From Candidatus Woesearchaeota archaeon (GTDB lineage: Archaea > Nanobdellota > Nanobdellia > Woesearchaeales > JAZDKJ01): a stretch of 64,000 nt of DNA. Position 1 is the first letter of the stretch. Each line of letters begins with the position of its first letter. The position numbers were made by a program. Below are positions 27,001-30,000 of the stretch, one piece after another. The DNA lies in the NCBI GenBank assembly GCA_043803105.1, contig JAZDKJ010000012.1:96001-160000 (forward strand), given 5' to 3'.

Positions 27001-30000
27001 CTTGCCTGATGCTAGCATTTCAAGGCATCCACGCTGCCCGCATCCACAGACAACCCCCTTCGTTATTGTTGGGTCTATAACCATATGTCCAAACTCCCCT
27101 GCTCCTCCTATTGCGCCAGAGTATACTCTTCTGTTGATTATTATTCCTCCGCCTATTCCAGTCCCCCATATGACTCCTATTGATATTTTCTTTTTCCTTG
27201 CTGCTCCAAATGTTGCCTCAGCCAATGCAAAGCATTTTGCGTCATTCATAGCATCAGCCTTTAGCCCTGCTGCTTTCTCCAATTCTTTGCTGAGGTGCAA
27301 TCCATTCAGGCAAGTTAGTGTTCCGCCTCCCCAGATAATTAAGCCAGTATCATCGATTAGCCCTGGCAAAGAGACACCAACTCCATCAACCTGTGTTCCT
27401 TGAAGTTTTGCCTCGTCCTTAAGGTCTCTTATGACTGAGACAAGATTAGAAATTACCTGTTTTTTCCCTTTTTGTGGTTCTGTTGCAGTCCTTCTTGAGG
27501 TGATGAACTTGCCGTTCGCGTCTATGATGGCACCCTCAATCTTGGTGCCTCCCATATCTATTCCGATTGCATACTTCATACCTGCTCCTCAACAAAAGCT
27601 GTTTATTAATCTTTTGAAAATGTTTAAATATCAAGACAGAACATTGCTTGTTATGAAATGCGAAATCTGCAAGAAAACCATCGAGGAAACCTTTCTGAAG
27701 AAGGTCGTAGGTAGTTATCTCAAGGATAAGAAAGGAAAGAAGCACCTGATCTGCCCTGACTGCCAGAAGAAATATCCGAAGAAGGAAGACATTCTTACGC
27801 GGCTCTAGCCGCATATTATAAATACCAAAATCAATTAACCCTTCTAATGCCTCTGTAGCACAGTAGCTACTGCGTCTGCCTCGTAAGCAGAAGATCGGGA
27901 GTGCAACTCTCCCCAGAGGCTTTTCAGGTTTTGTTTGGATGTTTTTCCCAGGTTTTTGCATATTGCAAAAAGCTGGTTGGGAGCGCACATCTCCCCAAGG
28001 GCTTTGTTTCGATGTACTCTCATTTTAGTTCAATTTTTTCCCTATCCGCAATATGTTGTATCTGTATAGTGATAACAAAGGAAACATTTATATACTTGTT
28101 CTGCTTGGATTTATCATAGGATGAAAGTCAAAAAATCAATTGAAAATGGCCTTGAAAAGGCCTCCGAATGGCAAATAGCAACTGCAGGTATCCTTGCTTT
28201 GCGGGGCAGGTCTTTTGCGAACAGAGTCAAGAGAAACTTGGTAAAGAATGACAAACTTGATTACTGGACTGAGGTTGCCTTGAACAGGTGGTATGTGCCT
28301 ATTGACAAGATTCCCAGGGAAGACAGGATTTTCTACCACCCACCTACAATAAATCGAATCATACAAGGAAATCTCCTCCCTTCCATGAGACATGGCTCTG
28401 GCATGGGTGAATACAAGCACATTGCGTTGATTCTTAAAGGTTTTAAGGATGTTCCTTTGGAGGAAATCGCCAGCACCAGAACGTACTTCGAGGATGGCTG
28501 TAGCGATTACTCAAGTACAATGGTTAGCGCAGATTTCCTTTTCTATCTTGTGCGCTCAAAAGAAGAAGAAAACATCCTTATGAACGCAAAAAAACCAGTG
28601 TACTTCTTGGGGCCAGAGATTAAATACAAAAGTTAGTCAATCGTAAATAAGATTTTCTTCTCCATATGCCAATCATTTCACCACACAAATCTTTATATTT
28701 GCCGAGGATACTTCATCTTCATGGACCTTGAATTGCACATGCATCCCTTTAACAATCTGCTTGAGGATATAGTGCATGCCATGGACTCAAGGAAGATTGG
28801 TATATTGGCTGTTGAATCACTCGATGCTTCGATTTTTCCAAGGGTTCGGGCTGCAGCAAAAAGCCTTTATTCCAATTTAATAATTGATGATGCCGGGGTA
28901 AAGCTTCCCTCAGGAAAGACTATCTGGAATGGAAGAGAATACAGTACCAGTGAAGGATTTCACTTGCTTACCATTGGATATTCGCTTGATACCAGACCTT
29001 ATACTGAGATAAGGAGGATTATAGATATTAGCTTGAAGCACAATGCACAGGTAATCCTCGACCACGGTTTTGTCGACAATAATCTTACAAGGACTGCAGG
29101 TCACATTTCCAGAGAGTCTGAATTTGAGTTGAACGATCTCTGCAAAGAATATCGCAAAGAAATAGCGTTGGAATGGAATGCTTATTGCAAGCCATGGATG
29201 AGGGCCAGCCTCTTGCTCATTTTGAATGCGCTCGGCCACAAGACACGATATTATGATGTGAACAAGAAGGTTGTAGAATTATCTAAGAGCATAAACAATT
29301 TTTATGGCCCGACACAAACTAAGCTTCTTCCCATCCTTACCGGAACAGACTTACATGCTATACAAAGAAAAATGCTTGAACTCATGGGAACTGCTAGGGT
29401 TAAGGCTGATGTGCAGGGAGAAAGCCCTTCAGAAATTTTGGCCTCTTTTAAGGAGCTGGTGCGTGCAGGTAAATACGAAAATACTTATGACTATGTTGGT
29501 TTTGTTCACCTTTTGGAAGCCTTTTGCCTACCGAAATTGTTCTTTAAGGACTATCAAGGTTTATAAAGAATACATACCCTTTTTAAATCCCAATAGCTTA
29601 CTGCCGCTCATGCAACGAGAGTTCAAGTACTATCCAGAGGATTTCAAGCCCTTGCCAGTCAAGGTCCTGCACATGGATCTAGTGTTTCATGTTTTTGATG
29701 ATCATACTAATGTCTCTTCTGACTTAAAGTTGTTTTCCTTAAAGGATTTGAGGGAACTTAGGCTTGATGCCTCAGACCTGAAAATTCTTAGGGTGTCCTG
29801 CGACAAGGCAGATCTGACTTTTGAAGTCAAGCCTAAGGACAATAAGCTTCTATTGAATTTCAAAAATGTTCTTAAGAAAGGTAAAGAATTTGTTATTCAT
29901 ATCGAATCAGTCTGCAGGCCAACCAAAAACATTCTGGAAGGCCTCTATTACGATGTCACACCGCAAGGTGCGCCTCCGACAATGATAACCCAATGCCAGC

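Follow-up and report, generated by a model that had tools for sequence, protein, structure and literature searches.

An archaeal tRNA-Thr(CGU) with A18 and G55 at the elbow, and the coupled change of these two positions in archaeal, bacterial and phage tRNAs

The canonical tRNA elbow combines a G18-Psi55 trans Watson-Crick/sugar-edge pair with a G19-C56 Watson-Crick pair, and G18-Psi55 is a textbook-invariant part of tRNA architecture. In the passages searched, Psi55 is called 'universally conserved' (PMC4810234) and G18/G19 'virtually universally conserved' (PMC4117946). The stretch of 64,000 nucleotides analysed here (the window; positions 96,001 to 160,000 of contig JAZDKJ010000012.1 from a Candidatus Woesearchaeota archaeon) encodes a tRNA-Thr(CGU) with A18 and G55, which raises the question of how the elbow of such a tRNA is held together. 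We consider it likely that this is a functional tRNA-Thr, in which A18/G55 replaces G18/pseudouridine-55 and holds the elbow in the form of a generic T-loop (G-clamp).

ARAGORN finds a single tRNA in the window, a tRNA-Thr with anticodon cgt at 27849..27921 of the + strand, 73 nt long and without intron or encoded CCA. The RF00005 model aligns to exactly this interval through its positions 1-71 with a full-model score of 60.4 bits (E = 1.4e-10), above the gathering threshold of 29 bits, which makes the gene a member of the tRNA family. An acceptor stem of 7 bp and anticodon and T stems of 5 bp each are recovered by cmscan, ARAGORN and folding, and the acceptor, anticodon and T arms form in the minimum-energy structure (-28.5 kcal/mol, z = -2.37). 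According to the cmscan structure line the anticodon loop has 7 nt with U33, and the D stem consists of three pairs plus C13-C22. The anticodon CGU (positions 34-36 by ARAGORN; 27882..27884, +) is of the NGU type and the acceptor GCCUCUG...U73 is common to the Thr tRNAs of relatives; the tRNA is presumably charged with threonine.

The D-loop AGUAGCUA (27862..27869, +), which cmscan aligns with the consensus AaU.GGUA, reads A14 (27862), G15, U16, A18 (27865), G19 (27866), C20, U20a and A21 (27869), while the T-loop UGCAACU (27902..27908, +) reads U54 (27902), G55 (27903), C56 (27904), A57 (27905) and A58 (27906). Positions 18 and 55 thus lack the G and U of the canonical elbow, and the bases for the predicted G19-C56 pair and for the predicted U54/A58 reverse-Hoogsteen pair are present. 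As the D-loop has one G able to pair with C56, G19-C56 is preserved only if the base before this G is numbered 18. Ala(CGC) from the same genome, with its 7-nt D-loop AGUAGCA, and the loops AGUCAGUA and AGCCAGCUA of relatives lead to the numbering that the preliminary description had drawn from the alignment; the A18/G55 state of the locus and its retained G19 and C56 were likewise recovered.

Upstream of the gene, ~25-33 nt from the tRNA 5' end, lies the TATA-box-like TTATAAATA (27816..27824, +), which may be an archaeal promoter; similar A/T boxes precede Thr(GGU), Thr(UGU) and Ala(CGC), the three further A18/G55 genes of this genome. The tRNA is presumably expressed, although a search of sequencing runs for the locus listed one DNA run, with a word share of 0.07, and no RNA run. 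On the other side the gene is adjoined by a repeated palindromic element, TTTTTCCCAGGTTTTT-hairpin-AAAAAGCTG (27942..27975, +), with ~10-14 copies in the genome and a hairpin of -15.2 kcal/mol (z = -2.89), which is no part of the elbow. At 27979..28003 (+), 57 nt downstream of the gene, a sequence is identical at 20 of 25 positions to the last 25 nt of the tRNA, comprising T arm, 3' acceptor strand and discriminator, with the T-loop CGCACAU. A split tRNA was considered for this fragment and rejected: no 5' half was found in which a D arm of the A18 type goes with an acceptor strand that matches, and we hence read the fragment as a diverged duplicate.

The same genome, which is 96% complete, has A18 and G55 also in Thr(GGU) (C6:525422-525513, +), Thr(UGU) (C6:33535-33644, -) and Ala(CGC) (C6:303770-303841, +), with loops as previously described, and the RF00005 scores of 63.2 bits for Ala(CGC) and 60.4 bits for Thr(CGU) were obtained again. 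The T-loop of Thr(GGU) is unusual in having C54 and C58. Every Thr isoacceptor detected, three in all, is of the A18/G55 type, and a search of this genome for a G18/U55 Thr gene found none. That the other tRNAs have G18 and U55 holds for five of five further full-length parsable ones (Val GAC, Tyr GUA, Arg UCG and two with long variable arms), a small base since the tRNAs detectable in the genome are six RF00005 hits above the cut-off and nine ARAGORN genes.

Across Woesearchaeales, positions 18 and 55 change together, a claim of the preliminary description that our own samples of the order reproduce. In 65 Thr tRNAs we find A18/G55 in 45, G18/U55 in 19 and C18/G55 in one, with 0 A18/U55 and 0 G18/G55; this set leaves out L069 (G/U) and L084 (A/G), which were dropped for parsing, and our scan of L075 and L076 found no tRNA. 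A neutral pattern run on 151 genomes of the order gave, in 150 of its 186 matches, 92 A/G, 57 G/U, 1 A/U and 0 G/G, states that were read by eye and include three or four rows that are probably not tRNAs; without five rows from G121 and G132, which are flagged as unpublished, the counts are 88, 56, 1 and 0. The G18/G55 pattern, which like our other patterns is confined to D stems of the type UAGC...GC, had no match in these 151 genomes. When the 401 genomes of the class were scanned, A18/G55 gave 192 matches in 133 genomes and A18/U55 gave five, two of them false, two not tRNAs and one a real tRNA-Cys (G150). The two false ones, L085 and L088, were rejected as A18/U55 tRNAs, as their GTTCAA lies inside an intron and their true T-loops, UGCAAAU and UGCGACU, have G55. 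Three genomes (G101, G006 and G048) contain both states in different Thr isoacceptors, so the switch is not a genome-wide effect. Within the class, A18/G55 is also seen in Cys(GCA) (G444), in Met/Ile(CAU) (G389) and in Ala(CGC) with G3:U70 (G459, and G078 from the genus of our genome).

The scope given in the preliminary description, Woesearchaeales with Thr and Ala(CGC) tRNAs, proved too narrow: the type is present there, but it is specific neither to the order nor to Thr. A scan of the genomes of 185,579 species returned at least 118 A18/G55 stretches, and among the matches listed 118 of 120 are consistent with a cloverleaf with perfect stems, bacterial ones included. The identities among these listed matches are Thr (66), Cys (26), Pro (14), His (4), Tyr (2), Ile (2), Val (2), Met (1) and Ala (1). 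Isolated chromosomal A18/G55 tRNAs stand amid normal neighbours, for instance in a Saccharibacteria-labelled contig (Cys, L104) and a Nevskiaceae-labelled contig (His, L130). An 'Akkermansia'-labelled match (L165) was not used as evidence for that species, as the MAG has 7.9 Mb and the tRNA sits in an accessory array. In the same frame, viral contigs of IMG/VR gave 45 A18/G55 matches, 44 of them well folded with perfect stems and together covering 14 anticodons, compared with 0 G18/G55, two A18/U55 whose T stems are weak, and G18/U55 in at least 120. Outside the pattern selection, and in other D-loop registers, 583 neighbouring tRNAs comprise 297 G/U and 239 A/G. Nine neighbours called 'G/G' all have D-loops ending in AGGA, which by frame is A18 G19 G20, and four called 'A/U' are all mis-parsed loops containing GG; A thus occupies the position-18 slot in ~96% of the classified G55 neighbours (239 plus the nine AGGA loops, of 259). 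The coupling is thereby reproduced in three collections absent from the preliminary description, namely the species genomes, IMG/VR and the neighbouring tRNAs.

The coupling is strong, but not absolute. Genuine A18/U55 tRNAs are the Thr(UGU) of G147 and the Cys of G150 (loci L095 and L099), and these two cases suggest that A18 changes first. G55 also occurs with C18 (seven cases) and U18 (three cases) in the Thr set of the order and the neighbouring tRNAs, and a scan of 241 million metagenome records yielded six or seven well-folded G18/G55 tRNAs, four of which are CAU tRNAs.

The generic T-loop has the consensus UGNRA, and in the T-loops of FMN and cobalamin riboswitches, according to the passages searched, 88.7% of the sequences follow UGNRA and the intercalating base is A in 99.96% (bioRxiv 10.1101/2022.12.26.521914). 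The T-loop of tRNA-Thr(CGU) conforms to it with the pentaloop UGCAA and CU as bulged bases in a loop of 7 nt, and of 363 A18/G55 tRNAs, 201 have a T-loop that begins with UGCAA and 139 one that begins with UGCGA. UGCAA would then act as a UGNRA 'G-clamp': A18 would insert itself between A57 and A58 and form a bond with G55, the outer G19-C56 pair being kept, and the tRNA should fold equivalently to one with the canonical elbow. The U-clamp (G18 with Psi55) and the G-clamp (A18 with G55) could stand in for each other only if both bases are swapped, and this would account for the joint switch of the two positions. Of the tertiary contact proposed in the preliminary description, the coupled distribution stands; the physical contact we infer from the covariation and from solved generic T-loops. 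That these tRNAs cannot carry pseudouridine-55 follows trivially from G55, and A18 would also leave no G18 for Gm18-type enzymes.

The most serious alternative is that A18 and G55 make no contact and were co-selected, with a looser elbow, to escape elbow-reading proteins such as a pseudouridine-55 synthase, a G18 methylase or a nuclease or defence factor. In 14 accessory or phage tRNA arrays, G55 is found in 213 of 223 tRNAs, six of the ten exceptions being initiator-like tRNA-Met, whereas the dispersed tRNAs of the hosts keep U55 (30 of 30 and 31 of 31); G462 has two arrays, in a region of ~40 kb (C1:2.388-2.431 Mb); switching of whole arrays resembles set-wide selection rather than a structure specific to a tRNA, and the finding of C18 and U18 with G55 points in the same direction. 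Escape from recognition predicts, however, that single changes are common, while A18/U55 and G18/G55 number 2 and 0 against 45 in the viral contigs and are near zero in the order, and the replacement is nearly always A with UGNRA, the combination that solved generic T-loops use for intercalation. We therefore regard an elbow without the contact as improbable. Somewhat less doubtful, but still speculative, is the idea that A18/G55 is a second, widely used elbow class without pseudouridine-55, used deliberately by cells and mobile elements and marking tRNAs as 'non-host'. Nearly full tRNA sets of this class are encoded by large phages and integrated elements. Array tRNAs would then be blind to, or protected from, the readers of G18 and U55 (pseudouridine-55 synthases, Gm18 methylases, elbow-directed nucleases), the kept G19-C56 face would leave them fully usable by the ribosome, and cells would have taken up this solution themselves in the chromosomal Thr tRNAs of Woesearchaeales and in the Cys tRNAs of Saccharibacteria.

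An A18-G55 elbow presupposes the D-loop register given above. If instead the single loop G were G18, or UAGC and GCUA formed an alternative hairpin, the elbow would be organised otherwise, and the minimum-energy fold does pair U8-C11 with G19-A21 in place of the canonical D stem with its C13-C22 mismatch. GCUA is also found in G18/U55 relatives (AGUGGCUA), so this hairpin is not specific to the A18/G55 class; with another register C56 would be left without a Watson-Crick partner, and AG always takes the position of GG, both in 7-nt loops (AGUAGCA) and in loops with two bases before AG (such as AGUCAGUA). A different register is hence very unlikely.

Even less credit can be given to phylogenetic hitch-hiking, by which an ancestral tRNA-Thr gene acquired the two substitutions a single time and passed them on jointly without functional coupling. 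The A18/G55 genomes do show a strong clade structure (25 of 29 in family f44, 11 of 11 in f80, 0 of 13 in f128 and 6 of 42 in f94), and the Thr gene tree of the order is compatible with a single origin: a maximum-likelihood tree of the 65 Thr tRNAs, built from 71 columns after removal of positions 18 and 55, requires 11 state changes and has no supported branch. As one origin plus reversions is possible on this tree, independent switches inside the order were dropped as an argument, and we turn instead to different tRNA identity families and collections. The state occurs across 20 amino-acid families of tRNA, among them Leu and Tyr of class II, in Bacteria, Archaea and phages, and therefore does not go back to the inheritance of one ancestral Thr gene; Cys, Ala and Met tRNAs of the class show it too, and backbones with the same acceptor stem, D arm and T stem are distinguished within these parts by 18/55 alone (L046 versus L041; L026/L050 versus L031). 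Least of all are the A18/G55 genes likely to be decaying or non-functional tRNA-like genes, as the diverged 3' fragment downstream of the gene and the C54/C58 T-loop of Thr(GGU) might suggest, since the intron-less Ala(CGC) and Thr(CGU) have the best RF00005 scores of the genome, its A18/G55 genes are the only Thr genes detected there, stems are perfect in 118 of 120 listed global and 44 of 45 viral matches, and 130 of the order's 279 genomes have the type conserved.

The A18/G55 pair, found again and again in tRNAs of archaea, bacteria and phages, thus looks like a working alternative elbow. A natural and recurrent paired replacement would prove the 18-55 contact cleanly by covariation and would link the tRNA elbow to the generic T-loop/receptor grammar. 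By its prediction a sizeable number of tRNAs, in cells and in phages, go without Psi55 and G18 modification, and it offers a ready-made double mutation for studying how the elbow folds and how tRNA quality control and orthogonality work. The near-complete A18/G55 sets of phage arrays turn the way in which phages keep their own tRNAs distinct from those of the host into a testable question. The arrays are relevant for annotation as well, because their tRNAs reach 30-60 bits with standard models, compared with 60-74 bits for host tRNAs.

A full-text literature search for A18 with G55 in a tRNA, which did not extend to paywalled work, found no report; texts containing both terms used them for other RNAs. 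The passages searched in the 2016 elbow review (PMC4810234) and the 2020 review of non-canonical tRNAs (PMC7609411) do not mention the pair, nor do those of the yeast SUP4oc study (Guy et al. 2014, PMC4117946) mention natural A18/G55 tRNAs. The same passages of the yeast study report no tolerated single mutation at G18-U55, which fits a requirement for a paired change, and show that second-site changes can restore D-loop contacts. For G18A the sole rescue reported there is U20G, a register shift, so that rescue by U55G was not seen in that screen.

Compared with the canonical elbow, A18/G55 tRNAs share the cloverleaf and a T-loop of 7 nt with U54, C56, R57, A58 and G53-C61, and differ in having A and G at 18 and 55 and no possible pseudouridine-55. 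Since G19 and C56 are kept, nothing should change in the flat outer face that partners such as the ribosome and RNase P read. Departures from G18 and/or U55 are also known from tRNAPyl and many metazoan mitochondrial tRNAs, which are without the GG and T-Psi-C motifs; in these the D-loop/T-loop interaction is lost or the loops are shrunken, according to the passages searched (PMC7609411), while A18/G55 tRNAs keep their loop sizes, G19-C56 and U54-A58 and have one pair swapped. A further likeness is to the generic T-loop of riboswitches, rRNA and other RNAs, in which an adenosine inserts between loop positions 4 and 5, where it touches the G at position 2; A183 of raiA RNA is a further example of an adenosine supplied in this way. 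The A18/G55 tRNAs resemble this T-loop and its receptor in their UGCAA or UGCGA, which fit UGNRA, in a 7-nt loop with two extra 3' bases and in an adenosine that would come from the partner loop. They differ in that the motif sits in a tRNA and the partner loop would also give G19 to loop position 3, the likeness being one of sequence.

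The Rfam tRNA model RF00005 covers all 73 nt of tRNA-Thr(CGU) (27849-27921, plus strand), the sole tRNA found by ARAGORN in the 64-kb window, with a score of 60.4 bits. Its sequence reads GCCUCUG UA GCAC AGUAGCUA CUGC G UCUGC CUCGUAA GCAGA AGAUC GGGAG UGCAACU CUCCC CAGAGGC U. As the D-loop holds one G only that is able to pair with C56, this residue is assigned as G19 and the preceding A (27865) as position 18, while the T-loop is formed by U54, G55 (27903), C56, A57 and A58. The minimum-energy fold recovers the acceptor, anticodon and T arms, and pairs U8-C11 with G19-A21 in place of the canonical D stem with its C13-C22 mismatch. 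Since GCUA is also present in canonical relatives, this alternative D-arm pairing is not read as special to tRNAs with A18 and G55 (A18/G55) instead of the canonical G18/U55. A TATA-like sequence, TTATAAATA, located 25-33 nt upstream, is a putative promoter.

In agreement with the preliminary description, the same combination is present in three further tRNAs of the source genome (G000; 1.56 Mb, 13 contigs, 96% complete): tRNA-Thr(GGU) (C6:525422-525513, plus strand; one intron, T-loop CGCACAU), tRNA-Thr(UGU) (C6:33535-33644, minus strand) and tRNA-Ala(CGC) (C6:303770-303841, plus strand; D-loop AGUAGCA, T-loop UGCGACU, 63.2 bits). tRNA-Thr(UGU), which ARAGORN wrongly named Ala, appears to have two introns, of 24 nt (31/32) and 13 nt (37/38); two-intron Thr(UGU) genes of a similar kind were also seen in relatives, e.g. 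genomes G141 and G390. The statement that the other tRNAs are G18/U55 holds for the 5/5 other parsable full-length tRNAs, all with GG and UUC, and rests on few genes, because G000 yields just 6 RF00005 matches above the cut-off and 9 genes by ARAGORN. A search of this genome for a canonical Thr tRNA found none.

Twenty nt 3' of tRNA-Thr(CGU) lies a 34-nt palindromic element, TTTTTCCCAGGTTTTT-hairpin-AAAAAGCTG, followed by GTT and a 25-nt diverged copy of the tRNA T arm and 3' acceptor strand (20/25 identical to the tRNA-Thr(CGU) 3' end; T-loop CGCACAU). Element and fragment together (27942-28003) look like what an insertion or duplication event left behind at the 3' end of the tRNA. The element occurs in ~10-14 copies genome-wide, with sites at C6:~187300-187420(-), C8:~150839, C6:371789(-) and C8:119670(-). 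It is found twice downstream of tRNA-Ala(CGC) (C6:303842-304055; loci L001/L014), with a repeat of the Ala 3' end behind each copy (26 nt identical, then 15 nt), so that a short row of tRNA 3' fragments results. One copy is situated, intron-like, within a tRNA T-loop, and another, with its relative orientation unchanged, within the 16S rRNA gene; tRNA-Tyr and a CAU tRNA each have a copy immediately upstream. The element may be a mobile intron or a palindromic element, and its insertion could be the reason for the small number of tRNA genes detected.

The coupling of positions 18 and 55 was evaluated in Woesearchaeales, where BLAST with the tRNA-Thr(CGU) gene gave matches in 98 of 151 genomes. 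From 30 BLAST loci and 40 fetched regions, 67 Thr tRNAs were parsed, comprising 46 A18/G55, 20 G18/U55 and one C18/G55, with neither A18/U55 nor G18/G55 among them; no tRNA was recovered by the parser from loci L075 and L076. The tree input consisted of 65 of these (45, 19 and 1, respectively), L069 and L084 being left out for parsing. A18/G55 was found in the isoacceptors CGU, UGU and GGU, and both states coexist in three genomes (G101, G006 and G048). In the locus comparisons L046 with L041 and L026/L050 with L031, acceptor stem, D arm and T stem are alike except at 18 and 55. With a pattern neutral at 18 (R) and 55 (K), 186 matches were obtained, spread over 113 of the 151 genomes; the 150 listed ones, classed by eye, were 92 A/G, 57 G/U, 1 A/U and 0 G/G (88, 56, 1 and 0 without five rows of the unpublished genomes G121 and G132), the G/U rows being Thr, Cys, Asn and Met. 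A G18/G55 pattern had no match in the 151 genomes. The proposal that the two positions change together is supported, though the coupling has exceptions.

In the class, represented by 401 genomes with a completeness of 90% or more, 133 genomes matched the A18/G55 pattern, 130/279 in Woesearchaeales and 3/122 in other orders as counted from the table (three rows come from the unpublished genomes G325, G326 and G456). The distribution is strongly clade-structured, with 25/29 genomes in family f44, 11/11 in f80 and 0/13 in f128. The A18/U55 pattern matched five places in the same genomes: two were false owing to an intron, two were not tRNAs, and one, the tRNA-Cys of G150, was real. Thr(UGU) of G147 adds a second genuine A18/U55 case.

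IMG/VR viral contigs, scanned with the same frame, served as an independent 2x2 test and yielded 43 stretches with A18/G55 (45 matches, 44 well folded, 14 anticodons), at least 120 with G18/U55, two with A18/U55, both with weak T stems, and none with G18/G55. ARAGORN found 753 tRNAs in the collected loci, of which 707 passed stem filters; 583 of these lie outside the pattern, so that their own loops are unselected, the loci themselves having been picked for an A18/G55 tRNA. Raw counts for the 583 were 297 G/U, 239 A/G, nine 'G/G', four 'A/U', six C18/G55 and three U18/G55. The nine 'G/G' calls were rejected, as their D-loops all end in AGGA, which by frame is A18 G19 G20, and each of the four 'A/U' calls was a mis-parsed loop containing GG. 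C18 (7 cases) or U18 (3) with G55 was seen at L078 (G123:C1), L118, L133, L150, L159, L228, L242 and L245. When 241 million metagenome records were scanned with the G18/G55 pattern, 29 stretches came up, most with broken stems; six or seven were well folded, four being CAU tRNAs. These four (metagenome contigs L419, L423, L424 and L443) have the acceptor GGGCCUG with G18 G19 and G55, the combination lacking otherwise, and the parsed arm sequences of L423 and L443 are identical. G55 is compatible with non-A bases at 18, with G essentially never among them.

Full sequences place A18/G55 also in tRNA-Cys(GCA) of G444, in a tRNA-Ala(CGC) with G3:U70 in G459, from a family other than that of G000, and in a CAU tRNA of G389, a member of another order; Ala(CGC) of G078, a genus-mate of G000, is of this type too. 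A global scan of one genome per species (185,579 species) with a stricter pattern (8-nt D-loop, without intron) found at least 118 stretches, with ~10 chance matches expected by a rough estimate. Among the 120 matches listed, 118 have at least 6/7 acceptor, 5/5 T-stem and at least 4/5 anticodon-stem pairs; their anticodons are Thr 66, Cys 26, Pro 14, His 4, Tyr 2, Ile 2, Val 2, Met 1 and Ala 1. Going by their record titles, the 80 listed loci include Woesearchaeota and other archaea and, among bacteria, Saccharibacteria and Patescibacteria (Cys), Verrucomicrobiota (Pro), Nevskiaceae and Planctomycetaceae (His), Binatia (Thr), WOR-3 and others. In some contigs, for instance at L104 and L130, a lone A18/G55 gene has canonical neighbouring tRNAs. 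The 363 A18/G55 tRNAs of the collected loci cover 20 amino-acid families, class II Leu and Tyr included, and their T-loops start mostly with UGCAA (201) or UGCGA (139).

In 14 array loci, six in MAG contigs (L118, L133, L143, L144, L150, L159) and eight in IMG/VR contigs (L223, L227, L228, L234, L240, L242, L251, L258), G55 is found in 213 of 223 tRNAs, almost always together with A18. The other ten have U55; six of them are tRNA-Met(CAU), and some of these six carry an acceptor end of the initiator-like C1-A72 type. G462 (5.2 Mb, single contig) contains two arrays with low RF00005 scores (C1:2.388-2.392 Mb and 2.425-2.431 Mb), and its 30 best-scoring dispersed tRNAs all have U55, as do 31/31 dispersed tRNAs of G461. 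An A18/G55 tRNA-Pro of the latter (L165) belongs to an accessory cluster of 12 tRNAs (C9:109-113 kb); the species label of this 7.9-Mb MAG, that of a 2.7-Mb-type gut species, is not trusted for A18/G55. The reading that the alternative elbow sets phage tRNAs apart from host tRNAs, which we consider improbable, builds on this use across whole tRNA sets of mobile elements.

The preliminary description had flagged C54 and C58 in Thr(GGU) as unexplained, and the T-loop CGCAC is indeed present (C6:525489-525505). On an A18/G55 background it occurs in 2/41 relatives, from two families of Woesearchaeales, the second being Thr(UGU) of G038 (G038:C161:625-687), and in one viral contig (L383); it is also present in the fragment 3' of tRNA-Thr(CGU) (27984-27990). 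C:C is listed as a rare (1%) substitute for the U:A trans Watson-Crick/Hoogsteen pair (PMC2615604), and a plausible reading of C54/C58 is a second pair replacement nested in the first. T-loops starting with AGCGU (13 cases) or AUCGU (4), with A54 and U58 apparently swapped, were observed at L101, L118 and other array loci and appear to be a further variant of this closing pair.

G55 excludes pseudouridine-55, as had been claimed for these tRNAs. The Pus10 model reaches 32 bits in G000 (cut-off 200), on the single TruB_N/Cbf5-like ORF (341 aa; C6:453546-453884, L384/L385; TruB_N domain 88 bits), and no Pus10 above the cut-off was found there; Psi55 on other tRNAs of this genome would hence need that enzyme. 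Because some genomes hold both tRNA types, Pus10 status is background and not the cause of A18/G55.

A18 with G55 in tRNA is not described in the open-access literature searched in full text, nor mentioned in the searched passages of two reviews likely to do so; some older remark on it is somewhat unlikely to exist. In canonical tRNA, G18 slots between 57 and 58 and forms a trans Watson-Crick/sugar-edge pair with Psi55 (PMC2896525; PMC4810234). The need for a paired switch fits a yeast screen in which single changes at G18-U55 were never tolerated (PMC4117946). That A18 changes ahead of G55 is suggested by the existence of two real A18/U55 tRNAs, together with the lack of G18/G55 from Woesearchaeales and viral contigs. 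Beyond tRNA, the second position of the T-loop motif is normally G, and the intercalating nucleotide contacts a 'G-clamp', tRNAPhe being unusual with a 'U-clamp' instead (PMC2615604). FMN and cobalamin riboswitch T-loops are UGNRA in 88.7% with an intercalating A in 99.96% of cases (10.1101/2022.12.26.521914). Given this prevalence of UGNRA with an intercalating A, A18/G55 tRNAs probably carry the generic T-loop solution, which would account for the joint change of 18 and 55, the UGCRA loop and the retention of G19-C56 and U54-A58. We infer this elbow mechanism from sequence data combined with the structures determined for other RNAs, and A18/G55 is classified as a variant of the known T-loop/D-loop tertiary pair.
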